From assembly GCA_051294905.1 (NCBI GenBank), contig CM119373.1:4404001-4468000 (forward strand): a stretch of 64,000 nt of DNA, given 5' to 3'. This document shows, piece by piece, positions 27,678 through 57,644 of this stretch. The stretch comes from Botryllus schlosseri (Eukaryota). Position 1 is the stretch's first letter. The number at the start of each line of letters is the position of its first letter. Made by a program: the position numbers and the translations under genes. The notes below the pieces were generated by a model that saw only the letters and a list, made by a program, of their open reading frames with translations, did not search any database and was not told where the DNA came from.

Positions 27678-29850
27678 CAGTGCTTTTCAACCTGTGTGAC
27701 GGTTCGCACTTGTGCGAATGAAAAAAATTGCAGTGCGAATGACGAAGGTGGTGCGAATAGTGCGAATGAAAATCCGGACCAAGTGCGAATGAGGAAGGTG
27801 GTGCGAATGGTGCGAATAAAATTCCGGATCAAGTGCGAATGAAAAATCGTGATTAATTGTTAATTTTTCTGACGTGGAATAATTCAAATAAACATATTAG
27901 GAAATTTAAGATCAGTGTAACATTTGTAGTTGCGACGTAATTGTAAAAACTTAATACGACGCACCACTAATCGTGGCTCTCACAAGCCGTAGTGAATTAA
28001 TATTCCCGCACTATAATCATGACGTAACCAGAAGCCTGGTTTGGAATCTGGTGTAGCGGCAGTATAGAGATCTCTACAATCTCTATAGTGGCAGACATAC
28101 AGTATATCAGCCCATCTGAGCCTGCGACAGGCTGGAAAAATGACGTCATATTGACTTTCTGCTTTCTTTCGCAAACAATCATCATATTTTCGTAATAACT
28201 GTTCGATTAGCGCGAGACACGAGGATAGTAGTAAATACGATCGTTACAGACTCACATTTGCAAGTTACTGTAACGCAAATTTTTACCCCTTTCGGGGAAT
28301 TATTAAAGTATGGACCGCAAAGGGTATAATTTTGGGTCGACACGGTGCCAGAGCTATCTGTTAATATGCATGTAATAATTATTGAATTTATTGCAAACAA
28401 TCCTGCGATCGTTTTTACATTTCCAATATCACTGTGTAGGGTAGGCTACTGTAGCCAATAAGCGAGACACGCATTAAATATGGCTTTATCATGAGAATTC
28501 ATGATAAGATTTGTCCGACACTGATTTTTTCTGGAAAACATGGTCGAAGTACAATGTTCCCTCTAATTTTTGACGAGTCTGCGCACGACCACCAAGTTAC
28601 TGCGCAGACCCTTGGACAACAGTGCGTAACGACTAAAATAAAGGTCATCACTTCGGATTTTTCGTGCGCAACGGAGATTTTCTGTGCGCAGAGACCGTTT
28701 CAGCACTGCGCATTTGCGCACGTGCGCAGCTTAGAGGGAACATTGGTCGAAGACCGTTGGGATGTACTAGTGTAGGGGTGTGCAACGAGCGAGTTCAGGC
28801 CTATGAGACTCATTCATTTCGAGGTCAACCCCTTTTGCGTCGGGGCACATGAAGACGTAAAGTTGTGGCGAAAAACCGCTGATAAAATGCGGTGCAGAAA
28901 ACAAAAGCGGCGACAAACCCTTGTTCTAAAAATGACGGATGCTGGATGGCTAACTCTTTCGAGATGGATTGGATATGTTGCGTTGTCGGCACGGAATAGT
29001 CCCGTTCTTGAAATCGCGTTCGTCAGACATGTTTTGTAGGGCTGTGTTTGGTAGAATTGTGGTGTGCGGGTTCTGTATGTCATACATGTACGTAAAATCG
29101 TAGCATACCACTGCAATATTAAAAATATGTTCCTTTTCATGGGTGAGGCTCGGGTCGCGAAATGTCACAAAAACTCAGATTTTAGTGGTAGTCTAAAAGC
29201 GGCTTTACCGTTATTATACTGTTATGAATTCTCAAGTTAGATTGAGCTATAGAGTAGAACACACAGTATCGTGAGTTATTTGCTCTCCTCGCTAACTTGC
29301 GAGACAGAAGTTGGAGCAACGTATCATCAGGTAGCGAGCTCTAATGTGCCTACTCTGATCGTTTTGCACCTTATGTTCCAAAGACACAAGGCAAAAGCCT
29401 CAACATAAACATCTGGGTTTTTCATCCTGTCGACAAACTGGAGCCTCCGGGACCTTTGTGTCAGCTCTCAAAAACGATTTCTGCCAGCAAGCATTTTTCA
29501 CTCGCGAAAAATACGCTGTATTTTGGATAGGAGTGCAGAACAGATTATAAGACCTGGCCAACCAAGCACTAGTAGACGTTCTTGTACAAATCCCCAACAA
29601 CATTGTTTGGCCGAGAAGGGTTTTAGTGAAATACTTGAAAGCAAAACGAGCGAAAAAAGTTGCCTTTTTGCTGAGATGCTTGATAGCATGAGCTACATAG
29701 TAGCCAGTTTTTTGCCAATCTGAACAAAATATTGTTAAGTAGGCCTATCTTCATCTTCTTTTTGTACAATAATTCTCGATTAGTTTGTGCGAATGAAATT
29801 TATTTTACAAAAAAAGTGCGAACGGAGCTCAAAAAGGTTGAAAAGCACTG
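27678..29850. mobile_element. Non-autonomous hAT element with GTGCGAAT subterminal repeats; contains a nested MITE at 28552-28745
   Basis: TIR CAGTGCTTTTCAACC/GGTTGAAAAGCACTG; perfect TSD CTATATTG; nested CAATGTTCCCTCTAA...TTAGAGGGAACATTG. Confidence 0.85.
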
Positions 29851-30254
29851 CTATATTGGATCAAATTGCTGTGAATATTCTCTGTAGGATATACTCTTCA
29901 TCACGACCAAAACATATCAGGTCGCCAGATGTTGGGTCACGACAACTGTGGTATATGAATAATAAATTATATATATTAAATGACTTCATTACACTGGGAA
30001 GACACAGACGAATGTGGACACATTACATTTAAATTATACGAAGTTACTCGAATCAGAATGAGTGTTAATATACGCCGCTTGAATGAATCAGGCCGTCATG
30101 GTGTGAGCGCGGCCTACTATTGCATTAGTGATGAGTGCTGTGAATACCGCGAGTGTAGTATTGTGTTCATACCAGGAAGTGATAATTCGCGAGGTGTGTA
30201 TAATTGCATCACATAATGTCGCGGGAAAATCAGTAGAATCAGAGGCTAGTTATC

Positions 30255-33200
30255 ATGCCTATGACAGGGATTTTATTGCGAAGAATCTGGCAATGGGCAT
30301 TTGTGATTGTGTTTCTCGGAGAAATGGGTAATGTTTTCACGTTTTTATTCTCAATGTAATGTCCTCTGCCTTGGTACGACAGTAAACTTCTAGACTACCC
30401 AGTTAAAACATCCAATGCGAGTCGAATGTACCGTATCTTCTGTAACAGAATCACTAACACAAGGTCGTACGATCGATTGCTTCCTTAAAGAGGGTATATA
30501 GACATAAGTCGGTCAGATTTCGGAATATATGGTATAAATACAGAAGCAAGGCATATACGAAGAAATAATAATAATTGACATTAATTGCCAGACCTTACAT
30601 ATCAGAGTCAAAATATACCAACGTAAATGTTTGAAATTAATAATGCATTAAAGTTGCATACTAATTTACTGTACGAGTACGCATGATATTCTGCAATATC
30701 ATACTTGAAATGATCAAAAACGTTTTGTGAAAGTGCGGTAATAGATTATAATATGGGCATCACAGATCAGCACTTTGGCCCCGTGCCTGAATATGACAGA
30801 TTAAACGCATACCAGTTTTGCTCGTCATTGAAGTATCAGCCATAGCCTGATGGTAATTGAGTAATTGTCGTCAATACCCACGATTACAGGCATTTTCAGG
30901 TTGTCGTAATCGATTACTTCGCCATTTTGCTGTATTCGAATTCGTAATCGTGTGATTCAGAAGTAATCCTAGTCGCAAAAAATTACATTGCTGAAGTTGA
31001 TTACGCCATGTCAGCTGATGAGGATAAATGTATCTTATTGATGCATCGCAGCAACCACAACTACACCATTAAATCCTAAGTGAGAGAGTAACCGTATGTA
31101 TAGCCTCTGTTGAATAATATAGATTTACATTTTCGTTGGTATTCACATTTTGACTTTAGTTGGGAGATAGCGCAGTGGTATAATCCACAGCTGCTACATA
31201 AATGGGTTGCGATTTCGAGTCCGACCGAGGTCAGTTCCAGAATCCCTATACCTTAGTGTTGGATGTTTACCTGGGCTCCTCCTCCTCATCCTGTCCGTGT
31301 AAGCCGTGTCAGACTAGAAGTGGGCCGAGCTAAAAGTCGGCAGCTACGGAATTAAAATGAAGAAAATTGGCCTGGTGTAAAGACCATAGTAGTGGACCAA
31401 TACCACGAATTTCACAAACAACAACAACGTGTTGAATGTAGAATTGGATGCAAATACAAGCTGCCGTCAGGTGTTCTCGTGCGCCAACTTGGTCCTACTT
31501 TATGAAATCGAATGACGTGTTTATGTTAGCTATGCAAGCTTTTACGGCATCACCAATGACATATGAACGAGCACTGAGTGTGTGTGTATGTACCAGACGT
31601 ACGTATATCAGGTACAGATTACGTACACAAATCGGTAGGCAGAAGAATGTGACTTGAACCGATTTCGCATTTGCTGAGTATGTTGTTTATATTTCGCGTG
31701 GGCTACCATGACACCTTGATCGACTCAGTCATTTAAATACCTAAGAGCCGGAGATGTTTCCACATAAGCTCATAATTTTTATTGAATTGAGTGTGTAATA
31801 TTTCAAAACGCGAAAGGCATAATACTTCATGATAGAAACTAGGATATCGAGTGTCCGTAACGAGATAATATGTCTCGGGAAAACATGAAGACATATGACG
31901 AAATGTGATTGCATAAATAAAAAAGGCATACCCGTTTATGTTGAGATTGAATTTAGCACTATTCTCTCCTCTCACTTCCTAGCATAATTCGATACCTGTA
32001 TTTGTAACAACTCACTTTTTTCAGGTCGAGTTGCTACGTCCGCAGAATACAAGTACCACAAAGAATTCAACATTGTGAGTATTTGTAAATTACTTGAGTC
32101 GTAAGAAAAACAATCCCCTTTTTAGTACATATCAACTAGGGATGGTGTGAACGCGAGGTTCACGTTCGCGTTCTGTGTGTGAACCTCGGGAATTTAGAGG
32201 TTCGCGTTCACAACAGAACCTTGGTAGGTTCTGCACTGTGAACCTTTCTCATATATTACAATTTTCACTTCATTATAACATCTTTGGTTCAAATTCATTT
32301 CATTTCAACTGCGGGCCACTCTATACATGGCTCTGACAGCATTAAAAATCAACACTAAACGAGCACTTTGGCAATCTCAAAAGTTTTACTTGCTTTGTTA
32401 CAAAAGTTTGCTTGAAATATCCAGCTTTCCGTTTGTGAATATTTAGTGACCCTCGGCTGTGAGCTAGACCCGCAATCACACAACATCACGAGCGACATAT
32501 GTAGTCAGCAGCGAATTATGCCTATTTAACAAATCAATGAGATTGATATCGTTTCTGATGTAAAAATATAGCCGGCGTACGGGGTCAATTTTGACTTCAT
32601 ATCTTTACTGCATCATTAATACCAAATCCGTGCGATTGGGGTGTTGGCTACGGCTGTATAATTTGTCGATAGGGTAATATCGGTAGCAAAGGATCCCATT
32701 TTGCACTCTGCTCAATATCAATGTAGCAATACTCAGACGCCGAATAGGCCTACATTGTCCGGTCTGGCCTAGACCGTTAAGGCGAAGGCTTTTATTCCCT
32801 GGTAAGTCTTCGTCGAAATTGTTGGCAAAGCGACGGAAGATATTGATTTTATGGGAGTATTATATCCTTTGATTGCCTTAGTTGATACATTTAGCTACGT
32901 TTAAAACGCCAATATGTACTTCAGCATTGTGGCATTATGTGGCCCGAGTCATCGCTAGGTATCGCGTACATTAATATAGGCTATCACTTCATTGAAAGAC
33001 AGGGTTGAATTAGCAATATGACGTCACGTGACGTCATGAAGTTCACGTTCGCGTTCACACAGAACCTTTTAAAAAAGGTTCGCGTTCACACGAACCTGAA
33101 CCTTTCAGAGGTTCACACCATCCCTAATATCAACGCACCTAATGAATCATTCACCGCATGAACTCTATATCCCTTTCGAAATATTCAGCAAATTTGCTGT

Positions 33201-36200
33201 CATTTCCAACTTTCTGTAAAAATATCTATATTTCCGACAGGATCTTAACGGTGAGAATACCCTTGCTATAACACAACAAAAATGACGGAGCAAGTAATTA
33301 GGAGGGTATCCGGCGATGGCGTTACCCGTAAATGACCTGTGGCAATCGTGACTCGTGCAGCAGCTGGTAACTTTATACTACAGGCGGAAGAAAATCATAT
33401 ATGGTAGTAAATATTATTTTCAATCATGCTTTGGAAGTATACATTTGGGTGGATTACTTCTAATGCTGAAACCAGTTATTTGAGCATGGATCTTAACCTG
33501 GGGTCCATAAATTCCTTGGGGGTCAAAGTTTAGTTCTTTTGGTCACCCTGCAGAAGCGGCGGTTCTAAATGATTCGATTTGTAAATGGTTCGCGACCCAC
33601 CTCTCAATTCGACGTGCTGATTTAAAGAAAAAAGATTCCCCGTCGCCCAGACTCGCGAACAGCTTGTATGTGAAGCTGGCGACTAACTGCGGAGTATTAG
33701 CAATTATGAAAATATGAAAAACTCAACCTGCGTCTATCAAGACTATAGCAACGTATTTGGCGGTTGGAATAATTTATTGCTATTTCTGTCCAATTGAAAC
33801 AGTCAATTAGTGCTTGCGTCACGCGAAACAGAGATAACGATATAAAAGTTTTTCGGCCGCGCCGAACGTGTATGTATGTATAATGTTTACATATGACACT
33901 ATCGGCTCCATAGTCGTTTTCGTGCAGGAAGAAAGTTTCTTTATAATGATATCTATGCCCCTGGTCCTTTAATCTTTATGTAGTGATTGTCAGACACCAT
34001 TCTTACGTTATAGTATATGTGCCGCTGAAATGTTGCCGCGATTGATCTGCTGATATCTTATTGCCAGGATCGCATTCCTCAAAGGTCGTTTCGTTTCAGT
34101 TTTGAAAAATGAGCTGAAATGTTCAGAAATTAGCTGCCCAAAACATTCGGTTCAATAGCATTCTCGTAATAGTCATTATTACGGCTCTTCAAGATCAACT
34201 CGAATTACGTAGCAAGGCTCCCGGTAGTCAACGCGTACCACAACCAAATCCACACTGATATATCCTTCAATATATTGGTTGACTAAAGCCAAGGCGCATG
34301 AATCTTCTTTTTGCAGTGGAAATACGGAAGTGATACGGTGAACTAAAAGTTACACAAAAACAGAATCAATACTAGCCTACTGCGTCCTACCTAACAATGT
34401 GAATCGTACCAATTTATTCCGGCAACAATCCTACACTAACATCATTGATCTTAATTACTAATTATGCCTGTAGAAAGGTAAACAATTACTAGATATGCCA
34501 ATTAAATATGAACAACAGCAAACCAAGAGCACGGCTTACATCAGGATCACACGCATGGCTTGGTACTTCTAAACAACGATGGTACGCTATCGTTACATTC
34601 CCCCCTAGAAATGACTGCATTTCTAAATAACATCAACACCAAAAAATCAAACAGTTTAACAGTAAACAAAAAAGGCTCCTCGTCGGACTATAGTTCGGTT
34701 CTTCTGCCTTCTTCAGTAAAATAAACTTCTGAATCGGTCGCTCTAGAAGCAAGGCATCTTTCGTTCTTCTGCCCTTAGAATCAAGAGCGGAGTTTGCGAC
34801 ACGACACAAAAGTCTGCGAACATGTCCATCTTCATTCGGGTAAACCTTAGTGTTGTTGGGAGCAAACTTCGTGAGATTAAAACCTCCTCTTTTACAAACT
34901 TCTTTACAGGACTTCGTCAACAATAAACTTTCCGAAATGGAATCACAGCTGGCAAGAATATCGTCCACATATGAACTTGATATTATCACTTTGGCTACAT
35001 CAGCACCAAACTCCTCTGCATTGTCCTCGGCAGTCTTCTTCAGAGCAAATATACTACAGCCAGGTGACGAAGAGACACCAAATAAATGTACAGTCATTCT
35101 GTATTCTTCAGGATCCCTGCTCATATCTCCATTTTCCCACCAGAGGAAGCGAAATAAGTCTCGATATTCTGGTTTCAGATGAACCGAATAAAACATCTGC
35201 TCAATGTCCGCAGTGAAGCAATACAATCCTTTGCGGAATCTTAACATGACTCCAATTATGGAATTCGTCAAACATGGTCCTGGAAGCAAGAGATCATTCA
35301 GACATTCTCCCTGATACTTTGCGCTTCCATCGTACACAACTCGAATTTTATTCGGTTTTGTAGGATGGTAGACTCCATGATGAATCAAATACCAGGTCTG
35401 TCCAGGAGTCCCGCGATCATCTTTCTGAACTTTCTCAGCATAACCTTTACTAATGATCTTCTCCATGAACTTACAGTAGTCATGTTTATACTTCGGATTT
35501 TGAGACATTTTCTTCTTCACTGCCTGCAATCGTTTGATGGCAAGTGGTTTGTTGTTACGAATTTTCGGCTCACTACGAAATGGTAATGGTAGCTCATAAT
35601 GTCCAGTTGCCGTCTTCTCTATTCCATTTTCACAAATTCTCAAAAACTTCTTGTCTTCTATAGATATTGGCTTGTCTGAAAGGCTGGCTGACATGATGCC
35701 AGGTTTTAAAGAAATTTCTGAAAAATCTTGTTCAAAGCATTTCAGCACCGTCACTGGATTAATCAATTCTTTAGTCTGATGAATTGGCACAAAACTTGGA
35801 TTGTTAACATTGTGACTCACAATGCGATAACAATGCAGAGTGCTTGGACATGATTTTGTTACAAGGCCAACTATACTCCATCCCAACACTGATTTAATAG
35901 CATAGCTGTTGGACTCTTCATCAGTGATAACTTCCATGGGACTCAGAGCCTCGATGCAATCTGTGCCTATCAGAATGTCAACATCAATATTGGAATCAAA
36001 TTCCACACATTCACTCATTATGCCTTGGTACATAGGGCAATCTTTGATCATAGACCTTGACACTACTTGTTCAGTGCTTACAGGAATCTCATCAGTAGAA
36101 TAACACGATGGTAAATCAATATAAGGTCCGCCCAATCCTCTCACTCTCAACCCCTTTACTTTCCGAGCCGCAGCCATAGTAACGTTATAAAGAGTAGTGA

Positions 36201-39200
36201 TACGAAGATTTACATCATGTGATTCAGCATCAAACATGTCCATCAACTTCTCAGAGATGAAGGTGCAATCACTGTGTTCATCCAAAGCACAATACGTTTT
36301 GATCTCCTTTTCTGGATGCAGCGCATCTTGAATCCAAACCGGCACGATTCTTGTCGACTTGACCCGATCTATTCCAGTCATGAGACAATTTGCGGAACTT
36401 GTCTTCTGCTTACTTATAGCAGGTCTTGACTCTGGAGTAGATCTCTGCATAACTTCCTTGTCGGTACTGTCCCTATGGAGAACTGTCGGGTGAACCTTGT
36501 TGCATACTTCACATCTGAGTCTATGTCTGCAGACCTTTGTGATATGATTCTGCTTTAAACACCCGAAGCAGAGTCTTTTCTCATGAAGGAACTGAATCTT
36601 TGTTGCATGTTCTGCATCTTTGAAACTGGCACATTTGAATAATCCATGTTGGCCATGACAGTAGAGACAGTTCAATTCCTTTCTGGATTCACTTCCAAAC
36701 TTAGGTGCACTCTCTTGCTTACCATCGCTGTCGACTTGGTCACATGAATTCGTAGCGAATGTACGATTGTACGTGCACTTTTATAATCCTTCTTGTAAGG
36801 AGCGTGAATCTTCCTGTTCTCTGCCACAATCTGGTTCAAGATAGCAGTGCCATAAACAGGCTGCGTAGCAACCTTTGCTTCCTTTCTGACATGATCACAT
36901 AACATCAAAAATGTTGCAGAACTGGAGAGAGCAATTCTGTTACGATTACATTCATTTGCTTCAGCGACAAGGTTATGACCATTAGCAGATTCCTTGGCTT
37001 CTGCAATGATTCTGGACCAATTATCTCTCTGAGCTGCAGACAACTTAGATAAAATACTTTGATTGACCTTCTCATCATTTATAGACAAGTACTTGGAATT
37101 TGTCATTAAAGTCTTGCAGCTGGTCAGGAAACTTGAAAATTGTCTGAGTCCCTTACCTCCATCTGTTGTAGAGATCACAGGCCATTCTAGTATCTTCATT
37201 CTGTAACTGTTGTTAATCGCATCAGGATCCCCATACCAATCTTCCAAAATTTGCTGTGCTTCATTGTAACTTTCTGTTGTAGGATTCACAAGAAACGTAT
37301 TAATATGCTGATTTGCTTCTCCTGCAGTGTATTTATTCAAGTAACTCAGCCGTCTACTTGGATCCTTCATGTTTCTTTCAATCAATTCTGTGAAACGAGT
37401 CTTCCATACAGGATACTCCAATATGTCGCCACGGAATACCTTTGGCTCCTCACATGGCAGGATCGGCATAGATTTCTGATACTGTTTACTCGGTTCAACA
37501 GGTGAATCAACTTCTAGAGATACTTTGCGAGCAACAGGACGTGATGCAATCAATGGTTCGTTGAACACAGCACATGGAGATGGAGAAAAAGGTGTAGACT
37601 GTGGGTTTAATCTAGTAACCGATGGCACTTGAGTACCTGAAATTTCGATCGGAACAGGAGCCACTTACAATGACCTGGATACAGTGTTCAAAGTCGGCTT
37701 CGGTGTAGGCACCATTAGCGGATTCATAGTCTCCATTGCTAAATCAGGTCCATGATCAACATCTGCTAGGATCCGTTCACGGACACGAGCTTTGTCCCTT
37801 TCTCTCTGCAACTTTAAATGCTCCATCTGTTGCTTAATCCTGGTTTGAGAAGCATCAAGTTCAGCTCGTAATCGTCTGTTATCTGCTTCCAATTCCTCTT
37901 TTTTCTGTTCTTCTAACACAAGCTTCCGGCTTAATTCGTTTTCAGCTGCTGAATACCGTAGGTCTACATCTAACGCAGCTCTTACAGCAGCTGCTTCTGA
38001 ACGTTGTTGCTTTATTGAGGAAGCATTGGACCTACGAGAACGTATTGAACGTTTACCTTTGGACGAGCTTGAACGGGAGGATCTCATGGAAATTGAATCT
38101 GATTCTTCTGCTTCGACACGATGGATAGTTTCATTTAGCGAGTTCACTGCTTCATTGTACCTCTCATTTGCTCGAGCAAATTGACTATTTGCATCTTCAA
38201 TATCATCTGGCTCAATAAGCTTAGTCATATACGTCTGATGAGCATCAGAAAATTCCTTGAAAGCATCAGTCAGTTTTATTTTTCCTTGTTTAAGTATGTG
38301 TAGCTCGGCTCCTGATACCAGGCTTAGCACTTCAGTGGTCGTCTTTGTCAGAGCCAAACGTGTTGACTTGACCTTATCTCGGCACATAGCAATAGCATAT
38401 TCAGTACCTTTTTCTGTTGGAGTTCTCTTGCGTCCTTCTTGGACGTCTGCTTCAGACACTTCCTGGTTACTTGTTCCCACTAATTCACTTGAGGGAATTG
38501 CATCTTCAGGTTCCTGACGGGCAGGAGCCTCTGTAATTGGATCATCACTATCAAGCATTTTGATTCCTTCCTTACGGCTCAATAATGATGTCATGAATCT
38601 TTACAGTTTAACTCCACCTTCCTTCGGAATGCAAAACCTTCACCAAGCTTGGAATGACTTGAAAACGTCCTCTATTGTTGTGAATTGTTCACACTTGTTC
38701 ACTGTAGATTGTTCAGTAAATTGTTCCCTAAATTGTTCACTATTACGGCTCTTCAAGATCAACTCGAATTACGTAGCAAGGCTCCCGGTAGTCAACGCGT
38801 ACCACAACCAAATCCACACTGATATATCCTTCAATATATTCGTTGACTAAAGCCAAGGCGCATGAATCTTCTTTTTGCAGTGGAAATACGGGAGTGATAC
38901 GGTGAACTAAAAGTTACACAAAAACAGAATCAATACTAGCCTACTGCGTCCTATCTAACAATGTGAATCTTACCAATTTATTCCGGCAACAATCCCACAC
39001 TAACCTCATTGATCTTAATTACTAATTATGCCTGTAGAAAGGTAAACAATTACTAGATATGCCAATTAAATATGAACAACAGCAAACCAAGAGCACGGCT
39101 TACATCAGGATCACACGCATGGCTTGGTACTTCTAAACAACGATGGTACGCTATCGTTACAGTCATCGGTTTTTAATCTTCGTACACGCCATCCCCGTAA

Positions 39201-41262
39201 AAAAAATGAACGACCTCATAGGGTCGCGACCTCTAGGGTGTGAACCCCTGCTCAAAAACATTTTTATATACCGTTTATGCAAACTCTGCTACCGTTCCCA
39301 CGTTCATCGGTATATACTCCATTTTTGCTCATTTTAATTTGCCTAGTACCATCATTCGCATTACAATGTTTTGTTTCATTTATATAGCGTTATAATTCTG
39401 GATTACCGTCAGTTTTCGTGTATTAAAATCTCGGTGTTAATACCCACTATTTTCGCCTAGAGTGCAATGCCTATTGCCTATATACCATGCTGGGCAGCGA
39501 CTATATTTGCACTTAACTCTGGATGGTATAGTGAAAAATCCTTTTCCATTTAGAAACGTCATTTTAATGCGTCAATTACGAGATGATTTGTTTAAAATTT
39601 ATTTCACTGAAGGACCTTTCAGACGGACACTGACAATGAAGCATATATATTGTTCTCATTATTGACATATTTTTATTTGTGATAACATTGTTCTATCCAG
39701 ATTTATATCATAATTCAACTGTTCTAAACGACAGACCAGCGCAGTGTGAATCGAGTCATAGACTATCTACAAAACCAGGCAGACAAGATCGTGTCAATCG
39801 ACACAACTGTTATTGACGTAAACGAATTCACGACAGCGGCCCCGGGTGATGTTCACACTGGCGTGACAACGTACTGCAATTCGACAAATTCTACGCTACA
39901 GACCGCAGGTGAGTTTGTTTTATTTGTTTGATATTCGGGCCGACATTCTTTTATTTTTGATTCCGTATTTATCGACTTATAGCACGGCCCACTTCTAGAC
40001 TTTTGTAAGACACCGCTCACGCGGATGAGAAGGCCAAGGGGAGCCATGATAAACCACCAACAGTTTGGCAGGAATTCCGGAGTTGACATCGGTTGGACTC
40101 GAACCCTCAACCCATTGGTGTTGTAGCAATACGCTATCTCGCCATCGCAAGTGGCTTGAAACATCAGCTTGAAATTGACTAATCGGACGAATTGAGTTGA
40201 GCTTTGAAGACTGCGGGGTTGGGCTGTTCAAAAATAACTTTTTGTTCCGGATTCCAGCCATTTACTAATTATATTGTCCGGTTACTCAAAAAAAAAACGC
40301 TGCACAACAAATTTAGTTCGATTTTAACAACTATAAACCGCCCTAGATCCAATTGAAATTCACAATTTATTAGGGAAAATTTTAAAAAAATAATCCATTT
40401 TTTTGTCAACCCCATGAAATTGTTGAGTTGTCTTCAAAGATGATGCAGAACAACTTGGTCTCAATTCCAACTACTAGAAGCGGAGTTATTTGAGTTTTTC
40501 GTTGATAATTCTCGAAAGTCAAATGTTGACAGCCCGAGTGGTGGCTAAATTTATACGAAAATATCAAACCGTACTCTGTACGGTATAATAATACTTAACA
40601 TTTATCTTCTAGCATGCGATTCCTCACGTTTCACGTTCAAAAGCACAGATCATCTCGATTATATACGATACAACGGTTCTGTACCACGGATGACTTCATT
40701 TTCGGCGTGCGCTTGGATCCAGCCGAAGAACAGAACGAACAGCAGTCACGCAATTATCAGCTATTGCGTACCCGGTACTAAAAACTGCAACACGTTCGTG
40801 GTCTGGCTGATACGCAACAAGATCAGAGTGACCTTCAATTCTAGCGACTTGAAACTCAAGAATATCTACTCCGAGATATCCGACAGAAACACTGAGCATC
40901 GAACACATATTTGTATCGTTAAAGAAAATACTTCCATGAGTTTGTACATCAACGCCTCGAAGAAGGATTTTGAGAGCTTGGTGCCTGCAACACTGGAAGG
41001 TGGTGGTGTATTGATCTTGGGCCAGAATTTGGACGGAGGAATGAACGGATCTGATCCCAAGCCGCGGCATTATAATCAAGGATTTCGCGGTGAAATAGAA
41101 GGTTTCAAACTCTGGAATAGATCACTAAATGGCGGAGAAATTGAGGGAATATACGAGTCCGGAGGATGCAGATGTCCGTTAGGAGTCATTATAAATTTCA
41201 ACCAATCCAATTCGGTGGTAGTGGGCAACGTAATTGAAAATTGGTACATTACCTGCAACTAA
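30255..41262 (+). CDS. Pentraxin-domain gene B, 5 exons (30255-30327, 32025-32074, 33241-33250, 39735-39908, 40613-41262), 318 aa, probably secreted
   Basis: All introns GT-AG with compatible phases (1,0,1,1); total 957 nt open. MPMTGILLRRIWQWAFVIVFLG hydrophobic leader, Thr-rich stalk, pentraxin domain. Architecture mirrors gene C; the 39735 acceptor is the weakest site. Confidence 0.75.
31162..31428 (+). mobile_element. tRNA-derived SINE
   Basis: A-box TAGCGCAGTGG, B-box TTCGAGTCC, (CAA)n tail; homologous minus-strand copies at ~39914-40148 and ~52179-52460. Confidence 0.75.
32137..33126 (+). mobile_element. hAT MITE (TAGGGATGGTGTGAAC family) in intron 2 of gene B
   Basis: Perfect TIR TAGGGATGGTGTGAAC/GTTCACACCATCCCTA; TSD ATATCAAC. 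Confidence 0.9.
34633..36675 (-). CDS. BEL/Pao polyprotein part: three zinc knuckles, aspartic protease, reverse transcriptase fused to the integrase C-terminal tail
   Basis: CLYCHGQHGLFKC, CFGCLKQNHITKVC, CEVCNKVHPTVLH; ALDEHSDCTFI; WYLIHHGVYHPTKPNKIRVVYD, ADIEQMF, HLFG, YVDD; then YPNEDGHVRR...ERPIQKFILL. Confidence 0.9.
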   Translation of the reverse strand: MNCLYCHGQHGLFKCASFKDAEHATKIQFLHEKRLCFGCLKQNHITKVCRHRLRCEVCNKVHPTVLHRDSTDKEVMQRSTPESRPAISKQKTSSANCLMTGIDRVKSTRIVPVWIQDALHPEKEIKTYCALDEHSDCTFISEKLMDMFDAESHDVNLRITTLYNVTMAAARKVKGLRVRGLGGPYIDLPSCYSTDEIPVSTEQVVSRSMIKDCPMYQGIMSECVEFDSNIDVDILIGTDCIEALSPMEVITDEESNSYAIKSVLGWSIVGLVTKSCPSTLHCYRIVSHNVNNPSFVPIHQTKELINPVTVLKCFEQDFSEISLKPGIMSASLSDKPISIEDKKFLRICENGIEKTATGHYELPLPFRSEPKIRNNKPLAIKRLQAVKKKMSQNPKYKHDYCKFMEKIISKGYAEKVQKDDRGTPGQTWYLIHHGVYHPTKPNKIRVVYDGSAKYQGECLNDLLLPGPCLTNSIIGVMLRFRKGLYCFTADIEQMFYSVHLKPEYRDLFRFLWWENGDMSRDPEEYRMTVHLFGVSSSPGCSIFALKKTAEDNAEEFGADVAKVIISSSYVDDILASCDSISESLLLTKSCKEVCKRGGFNLTKFAPNNTKVYPNEDGHVRRLLCRVANSALDSKGRRTKDALLLERPIQKFILLKKAEEPNYSPTRSLFCLLLNCLIFWC
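36672..38594 (-). pseudogene. BEL/Pao gag region interrupted by an in-frame TAA (37665-37667) and a frameshift before the zinc knuckles
   Basis: RKRTPTEKG N-terminal motif, coiled-coil stretch, PKVFRGDILEYPVW...LSYLNKYTAGEA (BEL gag core); the two ORFs share a frame. Confidence 0.85.
39914..40148 (-). mobile_element. tRNA-derived SINE in intron 4 of gene B
   Basis: Reverse complement shows GAGATAGCGTA...GGGTTCGAGTCC...CTAGAAGTGGGCCG shared with the 31162 copy. Confidence 0.7.
40613..41262 (+). CDS. Pentraxin-domain exon of gene B
   Basis: TCTTCTAG acceptor; SFSACAW...SYC...CNTF...THICIV...LYIN...GGGVLILGQNLD...QGFRGEIEGFKLWNRSL. Confidence 0.9.
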
Positions 41263-47586: not shown

Positions 47587-47874
47587 CTCCAAAATATATA
47601 CAATTCATTGACATTTATTTCTGTAATATATCAGGATTGTTGTGTGTCAGTATGCCGTGAGAAATTTTTACTAATCAACGGAGTTTATTGTTGGTGACGG
47701 GTAGTGGTTTGAGGAATTGCGCAAGGGTACCTTCGTCGTGCATGTATCCATACTCGCTTCGAAAGGCGAACAATTATTGTACCGATCGAAGTAATAAAAG
47801 CTCAGCCGCTAGCGAAATTATGTAAGACCATACTTGTCACTGTAGGTATAGGATTAGTAGCATCACAAAATAAA

Positions 47875-50800
47875 ATGGAGACAACAGCTCGGTATGTGAA
47901 AAGCTGGAGATGGCTTATAATGGCGATATCATTTGCAGGTACGAGTTTAAGTTATTTCTGATCTACATCCGACGACTCCTTCACGGATTCAAATTTTTAT
48001 TTCCATTGTTCCCATTGCCATCATATTATTTCATCAGTTATTCAGTGACTATACGATGTATTTCTGGTGCCCTTTGACATTTTATCGCTATGAATGATGA
48101 TTATAGGGCGAATCCTGCAAATTGTATGGTACAGAAAATAGCCTTTACATTCTAAGTATGTCTGTGGATATATTTAAAATTTATACGTGACGGCGTGAAC
48201 GCTAAGATTTGATATACTGGTGAAATTGTGGAAGACCTCCTGATATAGTCGATTTAAAGAGATTCACAATAGTTTTTAGACAGCTTTATTTCCGCGTCCT
48301 CACGGCAGCCAGTTCAGACAAGAAGAAACATGCATTGTCATGGATCCACCAAGTGTCCATTTAACGGAGTCGGAGCTAGACACTTGGCGGGCCCTAGAAA
48401 TAACAGTACCATCACAATAGTAACTAACAATCATCACATACACCCATAATGGGTGGGCTGTCACACTGCTCCCCCCCAAAGTAGAGGGAATTACATAATA
48501 AAAAATTCACTCTCATGTCAAACCAAAAACTAACAAAAATAACCAAAATAAACAGTAATCATGACTCATAATCCAACAAATACCTAGGACGCCTAACAAA
48601 ACGTTTCGACCTTGTAGTGTATGCAGTTTCAGGCACGTCCTGGTCATTCACAATATCAAAAATCTCATCACCATGATCAGAAACATCAGCTATTACTGGT
48701 CTTATTCGCGGTATCACTGGACGAATGATCCGCTACTAATGGTTTAAAGCTTGATGGGTCGGTTGAGCAGGCACATTTTGATTAAACACCGGGCCATACA
48801 TCTGGTTCGGAGCAGGATACTGGAATTGACATTGCTCGGCCACGTGACCAGCTCCACGGCACCTCGCGCAAACAGGAACCGGGCAATTACGTATCAAATG
48901 GGACGGATCACCGCACCGGTAGCATTTCGGCATTACACGACGTTCTGGTTTTGAATACTTAACTGGGGCAGATTCCATCGATTTCACCAGTTTCCTAACC
49001 TCCAAAGACAAAGTTTCCAAGTCTTTGCGAAGATCAGAAACACCAGAACACACACCACTACTAGACGTACAATTTCCATCAGAGTCATAACCATCACCAG
49101 TTTTAATCAAAGATTTGGCCACCTTACCCTGGTCTACTTTACTAGAAAAAGCGCCTTCATAAACCTCTGCGACTTTGATCAGGTCGTCCAAATTGCTTGA
49201 ATCCTGCAAGCTAAGTAAAGCACACACATGGGGGTCTGAGAAACCATGGCAAAACTGCTGAATTACCATCTGCTCACAAACTTCGTCAGACATTTGAGGA
49301 TATGCCTTATGGGCTAAACTTCGCAGGGCCGCAGCAAAAGCTGTGGGTGACTCCCCTGGCAAGTTCTTTCTAGTGGTGAAGGAATTACGATAAACCAGTG
49401 AGCCATGAGAACTAGTTTTACACCTTTTTCTCAAATGTTCAACGAGGCGCACATACTGCACACGAACCTCAGCTGACAACTCACACGCAACAGACAAAGC
49501 TCGGCCACGCAAACTAGCACCCAAATAGCAACCTTTACGTTCATTGTTCCACTCATTACACAAAGCAGTAAATTCAAAATGACAGAGGTATTCCTCCAGA
49601 GAAGTACCACTAGCACCATCAAATGTGTCGGGTGCCATTTTAACATAATCAGACGCACCATAATGGAACGGTCCCACATTCATCATTTTAGGACTACTTT
49701 GAGCACCATTACAAGGAGGGACAAATGCTGTCTCATCTCCACAAGAATCTATCACAAATCCAACCGTGGGCCTACTTACAGGATCACAACCTAATTCCCC
49801 ATTGCTGTCGGTATCAACCTTAGGCGAGTTCACCACAGAAGCCAACATACCTTTTATGTCACCCATGCCACTGCTCATTAACTGGAACTTTTCTTCAAAT
49901 CCGCTGTTCATCAGCTGCAACTTTTCTTCAAATCCCCGAACTTGCGAGTTGAGAGCAGCTACATCCCCATTGACCGAATTCATCAATTCCGCAGCCTGAC
50001 GCTTCGCTTCGTATGCCATATTCCGCGGAATACCTTCCATAATTTTTTCCAATCTCGCCAAGCTTTCTTTGACTTTTCCATCCACACCGGTACTGGTATC
50101 AGCAGAGTCATCATCCGAATCCGAAATCGTGTCAAGCACTAGGAATCTGTTGCGTGCCTCCAGATAACTCTCCTTTGACGAGGAAATAGTATCGACTTTG
50201 TTTTTCGGCGTGCTCGCCATTGTGGAAGACCTCCTGATATAGTCGATTTAAAGAGATTCACAATAGTTTTTAGACAGCTTTATTTCCGCGTCCTCACGGC
50301 AGCCAGTTCAGACAAGAAGAAACATGCATTGTCATGGATCCACCAAGTGTCCATTTAACGGAGTCGGAGCTAGACACTTGGCGGCCCTAGAAATAACAGT
50401 ACCATCACAATAGTAACTAACAATCATCACATACACCCATAATGGGTGGGCTGTCACAAAATGTCCGTATACCGATGATATTCTCCAATTGCGAAAAATC
50501 CACATTTGCATAGGGATCAAACGTGCTTTTGTAATGATCACATGATGCGAAATGTTTTTACCGTGGCATGTTAGAGTCGAGATTGACGCAGCATTGACAA
50601 ACATTTTTTAGCTGTGAAAAATCGCACAGATTTTGAATGATAATGATTCTATATTACACGTGAAGGCAGAGACATGCCAATCTAATTTCAATCTATATCG
50701 AATGAAATGAACATCAGAAAATTGGTCGAGTCAGTGGCATATATTCTGTTTGCGTATGTAACAGTCTTGGTTTCGAAGTGCTGTCAGTATTGAAACTTGG

Positions 50801-53800
50801 TATTCCGATGTATTGTCAAAACTATATATATTTATGCATTAAGTTTATTGTTTTGACATAGCATCCGCTTATGTAGTGGGTAGTTCAATAGCCTAATTTT
50901 GAATATATTAATGAACATTGATGAAACGTCATTATGCACAGGTCACACGGGATCAGAGGAGGCAAATGGAAACGAGTGCTTCGTAAGTACAAATCAATTA
51001 CTCATGTTAGTTAACACTGTCATCATGAAACGAATATGATTCAAAATATATCTGGCAACACAATATACAACGCTCTATATGTTACATGGCGAGCTATAAT
51101 TCACAAATGTGTGCAGTTGAGGATAATTGTGGGTTGTGGCTATTTTCATGGATTCGAAATATTCTGTATCGAGATCTGATCGATTGTTGCGAACTAATGC
51201 AGTTTGAAATCTGCCAATATCCTATTTAAAGAATGAATATTTACGTGTAACCGGATAATAGTAGAAAATGTGCATCATGTTCGGTGTTCACTAAAAGTTT
51301 GTGATCTATCCATTTTCAAGACATCAAACATTCAAGTCCTTACCCGACGCCATAAATGCCTGAACGTAAGATATCTGGCTCGTAGTCCACGGGTTTAAAA
51401 CCACTTCTATAACAGATGTATTCCGTCATGTATTCGAGAATTCACCACGCTTCTCAAGTTCTAAATTTCGGAATTATATCATTCTAAAGACGTAATGACA
51501 CATTAACGAACGTATCGAAGTAATTCAGTAATGCTAAGTATAGTTATAGTTCTGAAATTTCAGTATAACTTCCGCAGCTTTATTCGACTAATTCAGCTGT
51601 ATCTCTTGATTTTTACAGGATATCACGAGTAAGTTGATATACGATCCATTGACTACACGTTAGAAATTTACAAATGCACGATATTGACGTTTTTATTACT
51701 GATTTTACCGATACTGCCGCAATATGCTGTCGAGTTTTCGAGATTTTTCGAATCAGAGGTTACTCGGAAGCGAAAATGCTCAACCGTAATGGCGTGATAC
51801 GACAGATGTACATTGATATGCTTTCAGCCCAGGATGGCATGGATCAATTTCAGGAGTCTATAAAAGGTCCGAACATCGTTTCTATCAAAACTAATATCCA
51901 TCCCGAAATCGAGGTCTCCATGAAAAGACGACCAGGTGGGCATCTAAGGACCACAGCAACCGCTAACCAGAGGGATGCGGCAAGTGAGTAAATTGTTACA
52001 ATCAATTGCAAAATATCATTATCATAGACCAGACCTTGGATGGCAACTGACTGCTATTGCTGACCTTATGCAATGCGAGTTGGAAGACGTATTATTCATG
52101 CGAAAAAGTCTGAGCGCACGATTTCTGTGAGAATGATTCTTAATTTTCAGAAGCAAATTTCCGAGTGTTACAGCTGATGTTGCTGTTTGTATTATTCATG
52201 GTGTTTATCGACTAATATGGTCATTTACACCAGCCCAATTTTCATCATTTATAGGCTATTCCGCTGTTGCCGACTTGTAGCACGGCTCACTATACATTAG
52301 GCTTTTATATAAGCCCGCTTACATGGCAGCAGCAGCCTAGATAACCAATCCTCCAACACCTAGGTAGGAATTCTGGATTCGACCTCTCGGTCGGACTCGA
52401 ACCAGAAACCCTTTGGTGTTGCAGCTGTGGATTATACCACTACGCTATCTAGCCACCCCCATGTTACGTTGTTGACATTGCTCATGGATATCCTCCATAG
52501 GAGCTCGGCAATGAAGTACTTCTACTTACGCGGGGTGCTCAAGTAGGTTTTACAGTTTCAAGTCATACATCGAATTCTGAATAGCTTCTTGGAGGTACAG
52601 AATTCAATATTGGATAGGATATATTCAAATAGCAATGAACCAAAATATTTTTCGCTGACACTCGTCAGGGGCGATCGTCAGCAACTAGTAGCAAACTGAA
52701 AAGATCATCGTACATCGGAATATTGGAATGAACGTTGTATATATGATAGAGTTACTATATTTTTAGATTCGAATCTCTAGTCTGGCCTAAGAAAACTGGT
52801 GAATTTGAAAACTTTTCTATCAAAACTTCTGTTTTGAATAAAAAAAAAGTCATCACTTCACTCAACTCCCGAAACACCCGCGTTTTCACGATACTAGATT
52901 GGTGTAGACTAAAAAGAAATGGTCGTCATTTTGATCCCGCTTTTGAGGACAAATTCCCAAAATATAGGACATTTGGGCGTCCCCCGAAGACACTTTCGAT
53001 TTTGTGGAAAGAAGAGGAGAAATCTTCCTAACCGAGGACGTGGACGTATGGTAAGCCTAATATATGACGTCACAGGCATGGGTGTCAGTGAAGTTATATT
53101 TTGTGATACAATTGTTGATGTACAAGGTTCTTGCCGATTCTCGACTAGCTGCTGACGATTTCCTCTGACGAGTCTCAGCCGCACATATCCGGGTTCGTTT
53201 CAAGATGAATATACTATTCATTTGTACATGTACTTCATATGGAGAGTTGTTAACACAAAACTACTTAGTTTCTACATTTTCATCATCAGCTATACATGTA
53301 AGTCTGACCATCTACCCCAGTGGTTCTCGAAGTGGGGGGGGGGTGAGAGTATCTGAAGTGGGGCGCGAAGCTGCGGTCAACTGAAAAGTTTGGTGCATGG
53401 AAGGTTATGACTGTTATGGCGCCAAATTATACTCAAGTACGAGATATACTTATTTTAGCAGCCCAAAACGACGTTAAGTTGAACTAAAATTGGCTGAATT
53501 TAAATAGTATAGTCAAGCATAAGTATATATTTGTGAAATGCAGTCTCAGGTTGGAAACTGACATGTGCAGACGGTGTAGAGAGCTGGGTTTGTTGTTGTT
53601 ACTACATTACAGTACTTGGAAAATCGATCGTTACTGACTCAGTTTGCATTTACTATATTGTTGAAATCTCAGCTTGAGATGAAATAATAACTATACTCGA
53701 CCGGTGACCACTTCCGCTCTCATTTCATTCGATCAACTTTTTGAATTATTAATCACAGTTATATTTTTCATTTTAGCGTGCAACGTTTCTGTTTTCAATT

Positions 53801-54429
53801 TCCCGAAGAAGGATCATTGCCATTATTTGCAATACACCGGAACCTTGCCAGAGTTGACTTCACTAACTGTTTGCCTCTGGGTTAAGCCTGGTAATCAAAG
53901 TGAGTTCGCGAAAGGATCCGTCATTAGTTACTGCACAAAAAACGCGACAGGCTGCAACACTTTTCTCGTGGTGCTACGTAAGACGGATGCTGCTGTGTTC
54001 GTCAACTCTCATGAGTATAGGTTTTACCAAGTACCCCCCATCACAACCCGGTCACACTTATGCATTACCACGAACATGACTACAATAAAGTTTTACATCA
54101 ATGGCTCTGTGTACCTTCCAAGTAAAATCGGTAGTAACAAGGAAAACATACCGGGAGGGGGAGTACTTATCTTGGGGCAGGATCAAGATGGTTTTATCAA
54201 GGGGAATTCTCCTGGCGCACCAAAGCAGAACTATCAGGGATTTTATGGAGAAATACAAGGACTTCATCTTTGGAATAGAGTTTTCGATCATGGAGCAATC
54301 AAAGACTTATTATATCTGTCGCGATGCAATTGCGCGAACGATTCCATAATAACCTTGGATAGGTTCAACTCCATCTTAAAAGGAAGCGTGGCCGCCGCCT
54401 ACGACATCTCCTGTAACGAACATGAGTGA
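47875..54429 (+). CDS. Pentraxin-domain gene C, 5 exons (47875-47938, 50942-50982, 51619-51628, 51828-51983, 53777-54429), 307 aa, probably secreted
   Basis: GT-AG introns with phases 1,0,1,1; 924 nt open. METTARYVKSWRWLIMAISFAG leader with the same W-x-W motif as gene B; stalk exon shares IVSI-x-T with gene B. Confidence 0.75.
48227..50458 (-). mobile_element. Gag-only Ty3/Gypsy-type LTR retroelement (2232 bp)
   Basis: TG...CA LTRs at 48227-48465 and 50221-50458 differing only by a 1-bp indel; TSD AAAT; PBS TGGCGAGC; PPT GGGGGGGAGCAG; single intact gag ORF. Confidence 0.95.
48736..50220 (-). CDS. gag: Retrotransposon Gag (494 aa): coiled-coil N-terminus, capsid-like core, two CCHC zinc knuckles
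   Basis: PDTFDG...YLCHFE...NEW...LGASLRGRA; GESPTAFAAALRSLAHKAYP...QFCHG; CYRCGDPSHLIRNC and CARCRGAGHVAEQC. Confidence 0.92.
   Translation of the reverse strand: MASTPKNKVDTISSSKESYLEARNRFLVLDTISDSDDDSADTSTGVDGKVKESLARLEKIMEGIPRNMAYEAKRQAAELMNSVNGDVAALNSQVRGFEEKLQLMNSGFEEKFQLMSSGMGDIKGMLASVVNSPKVDTDSNGELGCDPVSRPTVGFVIDSCGDETAFVPPCNGAQSSPKMMNVGPFHYGASDYVKMAPDTFDGASGTSLEEYLCHFEFTALCNEWNNERKGCYLGASLRGRALSVACELSAEVRVQYVRLVEHLRKRCKTSSHGSLVYRNSFTTRKNLPGESPTAFAAALRSLAHKAYPQMSDEVCEQMVIQQFCHGFSDPHVCALLSLQDSSNLDDLIKVAEVYEGAFSSKVDQGKVAKSLIKTGDGYDSDGNCTSSSGVCSGVSDLRKDLETLSLEVRKLVKSMESAPVKYSKPERRVMPKCYRCGDPSHLIRNCPVPVCARCRGAGHVAEQCQFQYPAPNQMYGPVFNQNVPAQPTHQALNH
52179..52460 (-). mobile_element. tRNA-derived SINE in intron 4 of gene C
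   Basis: Reverse complement shows TAGCGTAAGTGGTATAATCCACAGCTGC...GGTTCGAGTCCGACCGA matching the 31162 copy. Confidence 0.75.
52583..53225. mobile_element. Diverged copy of the hairpin-plus-tail element, split by MITE 52747-53059
   Basis: AGCTTCTTGGAGGTACAGAA tail, GCTGACACTCGTCAGGGG left arm and CTGACGAGTCTCAGCCG right arm. Confidence 0.75.
53777..54429 (+). CDS. Pentraxin-domain exon of gene C
   Basis: TTTTCATTTTAG acceptor; SLTVCLWV...SYC...CNTF...SHLCIT...FYING...IPGGGVLILGQDQD...QGFYGEIQGLHLWNRV. Confidence 0.9.
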
Positions 54430-56643
54430 TTGCAAATTCGCGTATTCTATTTCGTTTGTCTATTGTTGTCATTTGAAAATGAAACAGTTAATTTGTTAAA
54501 TAGTATCTAATCACACAACTCGTCGTCGCCGAAAAATATGCAAAGAAGTACAAACTATGCATTTGTATAGCCTGCGCGCTACTACGATTAGATTTGCTGA
54601 AATAATATTTCCCAGTAGCAGGGGGTATTCCTATTGGTATAGGCTACCGAAATGTTTGAACTTCCCAAATTATTCGACGTTCTCACACCAACCTCGATGT
54701 CAATGTGAGTGTCGATTATTGATCATGTATAACTGCTATATTCATAGAACATGCATCGTTAAAATTGTAGTTTTGGATAATATATTAATGCATGTGGTAG
54801 GTGGTAACTATATACTTACGACATTGAATATTATCAAATGATATCAATTTTTTATCCAGACTTCGTTTATTTCATCATGTGTTCGTTGATGATGAATACT
54901 TGAGCATTTGTTAATTCCGTAATAATATAACATTGCCGTCGTTTTGATTTGCCGTGCCTGAGGCTGCCTTACGAATAGTGGGTGGCGTAAGTAGGAGAGA
55001 TATGAACGTGGAGTTAATTCGTAGAGAGGTTAGATGCGGTCTGAAGAGGTACTATTTCTCAATTCGGTAGGTCTACATTAGGGCAGGCCTGGGCAAAGTG
55101 CGGACCGTGAAGCTATTCGGTGCGGCCCGCGAAAGGTTTCTTGGAATTCTAAACATAAAACTTGCTTTTTGGATGACTAAAACCATAGGTATTATCAACT
55201 GAACATGAAATTCGTTTACTTGGAAGCCTGTTCATTAAGACGCCACAATTACGCTGCCTACGTATCTCGCATGCGTATTCCAGATTCAAAATAAAAGCAA
55301 TGTGGCAAAGTTTTAGTCGCAATTAAAGTCACAAGAAATCACTCTTTCCATAAAGCTTAGTTCAAACCTTCTTTGTTGCCATTGTCACATTACGCATTAT
55401 ACGGTTTGTGCTTCAAATTGTTACGTGATACGTTTCCAAAGCCCTAATTCATAATTCAAGTCAATTAGTGCTGGCGATTACTATATGACTCATCAGCCGG
55501 AAATTGTGATGCAAGTATAGGCTGAATATGGCGGATTTGAATAAAAATAGAATTCAATCGAAACGAATGGCTCAAGTAACTGCCCTGCTTTGTGGAACTA
55601 GATCGACCTCGTTCATTTTAATATTTCAGGATGGAAAATCTCTTGCGAACGTCATGGTCGACTTGAAAAAGCTTGCAGAACAAAAAAAGCGTGGGTCTAA
55701 CTATCAGGGTAATATAGCGATGAATTAACAGTTGCCGCGTACAGAACTGCCAAACGTGGGCACATTTAAAGATATGGTCATAAAGCATATGCGATATGAA
55801 TCCGACTGCCAATTTTTACCCACAAATAAAATTTTATTGGTTATCAAAATTGCAACAATTAAAGGACACGAGTTCAACTTGTGCTCATGAAAAAGGCTAA
55901 AGGTTAGCATTCGGTTAGTTGCAACTGACCAGTCTTCCATACACCAGGCTTCACAGATGACACAATCCTTTACATTGTTTGGGGTGACTGACAAAACACG
56001 AAGTATGCATACTTTCCAGCAACCAATAGCTGTGACACGATAATATTGTAGTCACGAGGTCATGAGTTCAGAAATTATGATTCAATTCATATATTATATC
56101 GATCTCGTGTATATTAAACGTGTACAGGATGGGGCTATTTATACTGCATAGGCCAGGGCTCTTCAACCGGATGTATCGTACACCCTAGGACTGGGGCGGG
56201 CAAACTACGCCCGCGGGCCGCATGCGGCCCTCGACAGCATCGATAAACACAATAAAATTATTGATTAATATTTAATTGTTAGCGCAATAGCCCGTCCTCG
56301 AGGCCCACGTATTTGGAAACGTTTCGGTTGCGAAACAATGTAAACATCCAAGAAAATCCAAACGTAAATGAATTAGTTCCGATCACAATTGTGATTTTAC
56401 AATATAACTCAAACTTTCAGTGCTGTATTTGGGGAATAACGGTTCATGAGTGTGATGTAGATTCGTCTTCTATGCGTTGTTAGGTTCAAATCATTCATAA
56501 CTCGGGTCTTAAGTCATTCATAATGAGATGCCCAAATCAATACAAAAAAGCGAAAAGTTTTTTTGCTGCACTTTGAAACACCATTTAAATTATGACCATC
56601 CAAATCACAGGCACAGTTTATCAAATGATGAGGTACAAAATAA

Positions 56644-57644
56644 TAGGGATGGTGTGAACGTGAGGTTCACGTTCGCGTTCTGTGTGTGAACCTCGGAAAT
56701 TTAGAAGTTCGCGTTCACAACAGAACCTTGGTAGGTTCTGCACTGTGAACCTTTTGGTAAATTGTAATTTTCACTCCATTATAATCTTTGGCTCAAATTT
56801 ATTGCATTTCATCTGCGGGCCACTCCATGCATGGTGCTGGCAGCATAAAAAATCAACACTAAACGAGCATGTACCATGCACCTCGACAACCTTAAAAGTT
56901 TTACTTGCTTTGTTGCAAAATTTTCTCGGAATATCCAGCTTTCCGTTTGTGAATATTTAGTGACTCTCTGCTGTGAGCTTGACCCGCAATCACACAACAT
57001 CACGAGCGATATAATTAGTCAGCGAATGATGCTTATTCAACCAATCAATGACATTGATATCGTCTTATGATGTAAAAATCGAACGGTCGTACGGGGTCAG
57101 TCTTGACTTCATATCTTTACCGTATCATTAAAACCAAATCCGTGCGATTAAGGTGCTTGCTACTACTGCATAACTTGTTGTTGTTTGTGGTATCGGTAGC
57201 GAGTATAGGAACCCGTTGTACACTCTTCTCAATATCAATGTAGCAATACTCAGACTCCGAACACATTGTCTGGTCTGGCTAAGACCGTTAAGGCGTAAGC
57301 TTATATTCCTTGGTAAGTCATCGTCGAAATTTTTGGCAAAGCGACGGAATGTACTGATTTTATGCAATTATCATATCCTTTGATTACCGCGGTTGATACA
57401 TTTAGCGACGTTTAAAACGCCGATATATACTTCAACATTGTGGCATTATGTGGACCGAATCTTCGCTAGGTATCGTGTACATTAATATAGGGCATAGGCT
57501 ATCACCTCGTTGAAAGATAGGGTTGGAGTTCGCAATATGACGTCACGTGACGTCACGAGGTTCACGTTCGTGTTCACAAAGAACCTTTCAAAAAGGTTCG
57601 CGTTCACACGAACCTGAACCTTTCAGAGGTTCACACCATCCCTA
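56644..57644 (+). mobile_element. hAT MITE (TAGGGATGGTGTGAAC family)
   Basis: Perfect TIRs; collinear with 32137-33126. Confidence 0.9.

Follow-up and report, generated by a model that had tools for sequence, protein, structure and literature searches.

The element on the minus strand at positions 48227-50458 (2232 bp) of the window, i.e., of the whole 64-kb stretch of DNA analyzed here, is probably a freshly inserted, still polymorphic and internally deleted copy of an active invertebrate Ty3/Gypsy (Metaviridae) family, generated by a single event. We hold this reading with moderate confidence and count within it a deletion that took place soon after insertion.

The ends of the element are those of a Metaviridae retrotransposon. 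Both the 5′ LTR (50221-50458, minus strand, 238 bp) and the 3′ LTR (48227-48465, minus strand, 239 bp) have the form TG...CA, and a 4-bp target site duplication (TSD), AAAT on the plus strand, lies on the 5′-LTR side at 50459-50462 and on the 3′-LTR side at 48223-48226; the computed chance of finding AAAT at both ends is ~0.005. A primer-binding site (PBS; 50208-50219) and a polypurine tract (PPT; 48466-48478, the purine run before the 3′ LTR) are present on the minus strand. The two LTRs differ by no substitution and by one indel, an extra C in a short C run, which places their divergence at no more than ~1.3% (95% bound). Within the 5′ LTR, an AATAAA occurs at LTR position 175, and no ATG is found from position 135 to the LTR end. 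The original prediction of a 2232-bp element with LTRs identical except for one indel, an AAAT TSD, a PBS, and a PPT holds in its coordinates and features, and these results support a very young Ty3/Gypsy-type copy. No second copy was found elsewhere in the 64-kb window.

The surroundings of the element contain other repeats and host-like frames. The element sits antisense between the second and third of three pentraxin/laminin-G-like frames on the plus strand (14025-14738, 40549-41262, and 53683-54429), which represent either the exons of a single host gene or the members of a tandem family. Several repeats, both dispersed and inverted, that measure 0.3-1.8 kb and are 78-91% identical (395-6512, 21834-33127, and 56637-57644) are probably non-coding DNA transposons. 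At 34173-39164 (minus strand), a BEL/Pao-type LTR element of ~5 kb carries 428-bp LTRs that are 98% identical and an apparent 5-bp TSD, with no TGG-type PBS seen by eye after its 5′ LTR. It encodes a DUF1759 Gag and an RT, its last ORF ends at 34633 beside the 3′ LTR, and it lacks RNase H and integrase. Since this is the second pol-truncated LTR element of the window, pol loss is not rare here. A 217-codon frame at 10103-10756 (minus strand) has no Pfam match and ends in an R-rich RR.P..Y tail resembling the pol end of an LTR element; it is probably an unrelated remnant.

The gag ORF (48736-50220, minus strand; ATG at 50220, stop at 48738-48736) encodes 494 amino acids and a stop codon. The protein comprises a predicted helical N-terminal region, a capsid at residues ~190-368, and two CCHC knuckles at residues ~433-464, so that the intact 494-aa Gag with two knuckles reported at first sight was confirmed both as an ORF and by Pfam zf-CCHC matches in two stretches. 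The structure predicted from 58 sequences (mean pLDDT 74) contains a confident helical domain at residues ~190-368. Among known structures, the PNMA2 capsid matches it best (E = 1.3e-4, the sole match under 0.001), ahead of the Arc, MLV, and dArc capsids, and the Gag profile matches Ty3 Gag (E = 3e-5). In Pfam, the element's own Gag (P0001) matches zf-CCHC alone, and the 58 aligned homologues match Retrotrans_gag (29), PNMA (14), and Ty3_capsid (10). Given that 14 of these 58 homologues match PNMA, we conclude that a likeness to PNMA is ordinary for Metaviridae Gags. The metaviral capsid joined to a CCHC nucleocapsid is the arrangement that characterizes Metaviridae.

An unindexed protein search with Gag returned 3841 matches at E ≤ 0.001, the best of them at 36% identity, which indicates that the searched protein libraries hold no close relative; when the protein search was word-indexed, neither the full-length Gag nor residues 190-470 as query gave a match at E ≤ 0.001. 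A locus search with Gag found nothing in viral or metagenome contigs. Using instead an alignment of tighter relatives (A3, built without P0001), we obtained 33 metagenome loci (L001-L033) and nothing in viral contigs. These loci are a sister group, ~30% identical (25-39%), and not the element's own family. The pol domains of the Gag relatives follow the motif order PR-RT-IN, and PR and/or RT motifs were detected in 10 of the 11 related loci with at least 2.5 kb downstream.

Several of these relatives have unusual layouts of their own. P0004 (Mytilus edulis, CAG2245062.1) joins Gag and protease to an integrase-like C-terminus and pol tail in a single 919-aa frame with no room for RT; it represents either a further relative with an internal deletion or an artefact of the gene model. 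L019:4736-8195 is a degraded relative in which gag, a single integrase-like motif, and an LTR-like stretch with a match in L022 were found but no PR or RT motif; it is possibly another internal deletion. The contig ends of L001, L002, and L014 carry terminal repeats of 63-127 bp around a whole element with one LTR region, a layout as expected of collapsed or circular forms. Within the gag studied here, a 33-bp in-frame tandem duplication (49868-49933, 85% identical) lies in a predicted long helix. A loose contig end at 49935 in one of the sequencing runs described below (X5) resembles a further 33-bp unit, suggesting that the number of units may vary among copies.

To place the copy within its family, positions 47800-50900 were compared with 4 of 24 public runs: X1, X5, and X12, which yield DNA-type contigs and carry the species labels A, B, and C, respectively, and X21 (RNA). 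In X1, gag contigs reach a depth of ~170-200 compared with 7-10 per flank haplotype, a rough ratio of ~17-23; in X12, gag depth is ~20 compared with ~2 in the flank, a rough ratio of ~10; and in X5, gag depth is ~20 with almost no flank depth. In addition, contigs of X1 pass from the LTR into dissimilar DNA, 15 of them at its end and 9 at its start, which implies many insertion sites. The element therefore belongs to a young multi-copy family, very roughly of ~10-20 copies, summed depth being no copy number.

The contigs also reveal where the copy departs from its family. On the gag side, contigs of X5 and X12 run past 48695 for up to 426 bases into DNA absent from the window; on the tail side, contigs of X1, X5, and X12 diverge at 48700. 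These two divergence points identify the element as a longer family member that has lost an internal segment. The deletion junction is thus at 48695-48700 (minus strand), rather than at ~48690 as originally placed, and consists of a 6-nt microhomology common to the gag side and the tail side of family copies; the chance of a microhomology of 6 nt or more is ~0.002. As an undeleted parent would, the gag contigs of X5 and X12, 98-99% identical to the copy, continue past the junction. At 48739, the depth lying in contigs unlike the window from 48695 was 17.9 plus 2.0 of 19.9 in X5 and 19.9 of 19.9 in X12. Since the undeleted path holds the whole depth in both runs, a dominant gag-only family is excluded.

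The lost segment would be pol, a reading that we base on the PR and/or RT motifs in 10 of the 11 informative loci and on the pol end that three loci share with the copy. Beyond the junction, loose ends are seen for 30 letters per side; those of the gag side contain no stop in any of the three frames (by eye). With a relative's polyprotein as query, the gag region alone of the element was matched, and no PR, RT, RH, or IN. What is left of pol is its remnant 3′ end at 48559-48699 (minus strand), which comprises 46 codons without a recognisable domain: an acidic stretch followed by an R-rich RRP..DY tail. This R-rich tail ending in DY is shared with the pol ends of L001, L002, and L005.

The end of gag retains the signature of a gag-pol parent. 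A slippery heptamer, TTTAAAC, lies at 48742-48748 (minus strand) in the -1 phase at the gag end, and a predicted stem-loop (48702-48739, minus strand) has its main stem starting 8 nt past the heptamer; its predicted energy is -11.5 kcal/mol (z = -3.1), with 1 of 200 shuffles equally stable. The original prediction was right to place TTTAAAC in the -1 phase and to find the -1 frame open for 18 codons before it closes, with the refinement that the surviving pol tail shares the frame of gag and follows two TAG stops in tandem. Because of this arrangement, a -1 product never reaches the pol tail. Among the 150 matches listed, 120 homologues end 4-60 residues past a knuckle, and 62 of these 120 have [LGE]N within the last three residues of Gag (background 0.011 per position), a pattern that would fit the whole group of Gags ending at a slippery site. 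Altogether, these results support the views that the -1 frameshift signal was inherited from a parent with gag and pol, and that Gag is the only product the element still encodes intact. At most, the copy would make uncleaved Gag and a minor frameshift form in which ~18 residues differ at the end.

The insertion itself is recent enough to be polymorphic. X1 contains an exact flank-to-LTR contig (depth 7.4) and an exact contig in the other flank, together with a second haplotype that skips the element, passing from 48159 to 50459 (depth 9.8). Since filled and element-skipping haplotypes are both present, the insertion is heterozygous in X1, which may be the source individual and so is not independent support. 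In the rows listed for X5 and X12, the flanks are not joined to the element.

The copy also differs from the bulk of its family. Compared with ten main gag contigs, 35 of 2845 bases differ (1.2%), and X1 also contains a subfamily (record 6) that is 87% identical. The letter shared by both LTRs at 50248 and at 50338 is missing from 78-100% of the depth, and at six gag positions the copy has a letter that no depth in any of the three runs supports; three of these six changes alter an amino acid. Because the LTRs have no substitutions between them (P ~0.003-0.05 otherwise), this divergence predates insertion, and the donor is a minor sublineage. Among the best-supported 40 of 315 variants, in which sublineages are mixed, 12 of 19 are synonymous compared with an expected 28% (P = 0.0015); in this biased subset, the synonymous excess reflects selection on a mobile family and is not evidence of domestication. 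As to expression, none of the reads in the ~12% of RNA run X21 that was sampled matches the element, which is no test of its transcription, and the presumed-RNA runs X9, X10, and X17 contain 34-45% of the element's words.

Taken together, these features outline how the copy may have arisen. The parent would have had the layout LTR, tRNA-Arg PBS, gag, -1 frameshift on TTTAAAC with the stem-loop, pol, PPT, and LTR. Almost all of pol, an estimated ~3.5-4 kb by analogy with relatives, would have been lost between the two copies of the 6-nt microhomology in a single step, most likely a template jump of reverse transcriptase during copying of a full-length donor of the minor sublineage, with repair soon after insertion as an alternative. 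Having kept its cis signals, the copy could in principle be mobilised by its relatives, and borrowing Pol in trans is possible; no spread was seen.

The same observations bear on a different history, in which the deletion would be older and the copy would come from a small non-autonomous sublineage, its donor RNA packaged (perhaps by its own Gag), its Pol supplied by intact relatives, and its junction shared by a few loci. All cis signals and gag are intact, as such a sublineage would have them, and the rare letters in both LTRs and at the six gag positions, with no substitution between the LTRs and ~1.2% divergence from the family majority, fit a donor already deleted no less than a minor donor of full length, which keeps this explanation alive. 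Two reports provide precedents: deleted Ty1 and Ty3 RNAs transpose with proteins supplied in trans, as in the mini-Ty1/Ty3 helper systems (PMC4974528), and new insertions of a cattle ERV are mostly defective copies (PMC10924933). However, among the listed contigs of X5 and X12, which drop rare forms, the junction was not seen a second time; at the gag end, the full depth passes into other DNA on unbroken contigs; and the 64-kb window holds no other copy. A few junction copies could hide, as the window's private letters are invisible in X1 despite X1 carrying the insertion, and the comparison covers 40 of 315 variants, with 119 loose ends and 552 pieces outside it. We thus regard an older, deleted sublineage as possible, if on balance doubtful. 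The proposal of a recurring capsid-only element is therefore not supported, no second junction having been seen among these contigs.

Other internally deleted or non-autonomous LTR derivatives have been described, among them the D-type of bovine ERVK[2-1-LTR], ETn/MusD, and IAP I-delta-1 (PMC10924933); a sugar beet survey regards derivatives of this sort as forming a continuum, moulded by recombination and template switching (PMC13570524). Like these, our copy keeps the terminal cis signals, has lost the enzymes, has near-identical intact relatives in its own genome, and was inserted recently. It differs in that gag is fully open with almost all of pol gone, and in that it is known from one junction copy.

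The plant TR-GAG elements offer a closer formal parallel, and we consider it very unlikely that the copy represents an established family of this kind, with many dispersed gag-only copies, conservation across species, and no close autonomous partner. The resemblance lies in a length under 4 kb, LTRs, PBS, PPT, and TSD, and a single Gag ORF with a zinc knuckle and no PR, RT, RH, or IN. However, TR-GAGs are described as transcribed, multi-copy families, of which at least two copies are required and 60 complete copies are given for TR-GAG1, which had no close autonomous partner (PMC4350172). Here, by contrast, there is one junction copy with a pol tail and a frameshift site in an animal host, and copies 98-99% identical to it pass the junction on both sides, so that a longer, close partner dominates and takes the whole gag depth of X5 and X12 past the junction. 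In the literature searched, whose coverage is incomplete and leaves subscription papers mostly outside, no gag-only family of animal Gypsy elements came to light. The MaLRs of mammals and bhikhari of zebrafish carry a gag-like single ORF. As animal LTR elements without pol they would resemble the present copy, and they differ from it as amplified families, MaLRs being ERVL-derived. One source lists MaLR as a non-autonomous ERVL type (PMC7778262).

It is likewise highly improbable that the structure is an assembly error joining gag and a pol tail across a short repeat. No listed contig spans the junction, X1 has no depth at 48739-48740 (gaps that prove nothing), and the sole LTR difference falls in a homopolymer run. 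Nevertheless, on either side the flank agrees exactly with X1 contigs, the two copies of the TSD are identical, the gag frame is unbroken, and assemblers are not misled by a repeat as short as 6 nt.

An incipient domestication of the capsid for host use, as a step towards Arc/PNMA-like genes, had been proposed and has in its favour an intact ORF whose capsid fold resembles that of PNMA2 more than any other solved structure, but is scarcely credible given the empty haplotype in X1, flanks unjoined in the rows listed for X5 and X12, the intact LTRs, PBS, and TSD of a mobile element, the PNMA/Arc similarity common to ordinary Metaviridae Gags, and a youth that explains the open frame. Arc, PNMA, and RTL share the capsid fold, and are described in one source as host genes that are fixed and orthologous and have long been under purifying selection (PMC11011659). 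The present insertion is LTR-flanked and polymorphic, its locus being filled and empty on different haplotypes of X1.

One trait of the deleted copy sets it apart from its relatives. A single A separates the end of the 5′ LTR from TGGCGAGC, and this A together with the following TG forms the first in-frame ATG, at 50220. The gag ATG (50218-50220, minus strand) thus consists of the 1-nt spacer and the first two bases of the tRNA-Arg-like PBS (50208-50219, minus strand), which encodes Gag residues 1-4; the original claim that the start codon is built from spacer and PBS, with the PBS encoding the Gag N-terminus, is borne out in the sequence. For the primer suspected from the start, tRNA-Arg, the match is partial and was made by eye against tRNAs of other species (supplement rows of PMC13524379): the PBS matches the 3′ end of Arg-ACG at 8 contiguous positions and 10 of 12 overall, and those of Arg-UCG and Arg-UCU at 10 of 12 with one internal mismatch. 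No host tRNA gene was found within the 64-kb window. Self-priming of the Tf1 type was rejected, as pairing of the PBS to the element's own LTR is no better than in shuffles: the longest match is 5 (Watson-Crick) or 6 (with GU), equalled in 398 and 953 of 1000 shuffles, respectively.

The PBS ATG is probably the real start of gag. It has a strong context (A at -3, G at +4), and the next in-frame ATG lies 60 codons on, with three out-of-frame ATGs earlier; the chance of the 59 stop-free codons after the PBS ATG is 0.024. No unusual RNA structure was predicted around the PBS and AUG (z = -0.25). Among relatives with an evaluable frame, the gag ATG is the first ATG past the PBS in 10 of 12. Since gag translation in the group begins at whichever AUG comes first past the LTR, the PBS AUG is the expected start here. 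Translation would most likely begin by scanning at this AUG, and primer annealing and initiation would then compete for the same bases. We consider it likely that the AUG is really used, family-wide.

The overlap of PBS and ATG is not general in the wider group. The LTR end and PBS were recognisable in 18 of the 33 sister-group metagenome loci; all 18 have C or T before TGG, a Leu-type PBS, and the first ATG 30-289 nt downstream, and none shows the overlap. Compared with these marine-invertebrate Ty3/Gypsy elements (L001-L033 and CAG2245062.1), our copy has the same capsid-knuckle Gag, [LGE]N end, R-rich tail ending in DY, and short spacer followed by a TGG PBS; it differs in that they have a tRNA-Leu-type PBS with a pyrimidine before TGG, whereas its own PBS is Arg-like and carries the ATG. 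The overlap and the deletion are 1.5 kb apart, and the overlap is most likely a trait of the parent family rather than of the gag-only state. No variant was listed at 50200-50221 among 40 of 315, which is no proof of fixation in the family. The second-best database match (P0003, 34% identity) also begins with MASTP, a hint that the layout is older than the family, S-T-P being common in these Gags. In yeast Ty1, the ATG lies upstream in the LTR. The Ty1 PBS falls within the GAG ORF (PMC4974528). Both elements thus read the PBS as Gag codons, and here the initiation codon itself is made from PBS bases. The literature covered, which is incomplete and omits most subscription papers, contained no PBS-formed start codon in an animal Gypsy element.

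A more ambitious proposal combines this trait with the gag-only state. Annealing of tRNA-Arg would occlude the AUG and switch the RNA from translation to reverse transcription, the tRNA end would template Gag residues 1-4 in each cycle, and a gag-only sublineage would package itself and borrow the Pol of its siblings. We consider this combination unlikely.

Altogether, the element is an ordinary young defective retrotransposon copy, and neither a new capsid-only class nor a step of domestication is shown. Its start codon overlapping the PBS is one unusual trait, probably inherited from the parent family. If confirmed, this overlap would offer a natural test of how an RNA is divided between translation and priming; and if the junction recurs elsewhere, the copy would be an animal Gypsy counterpart of the TR-GAGs known from plants, captured at its origin while its parent still exists.
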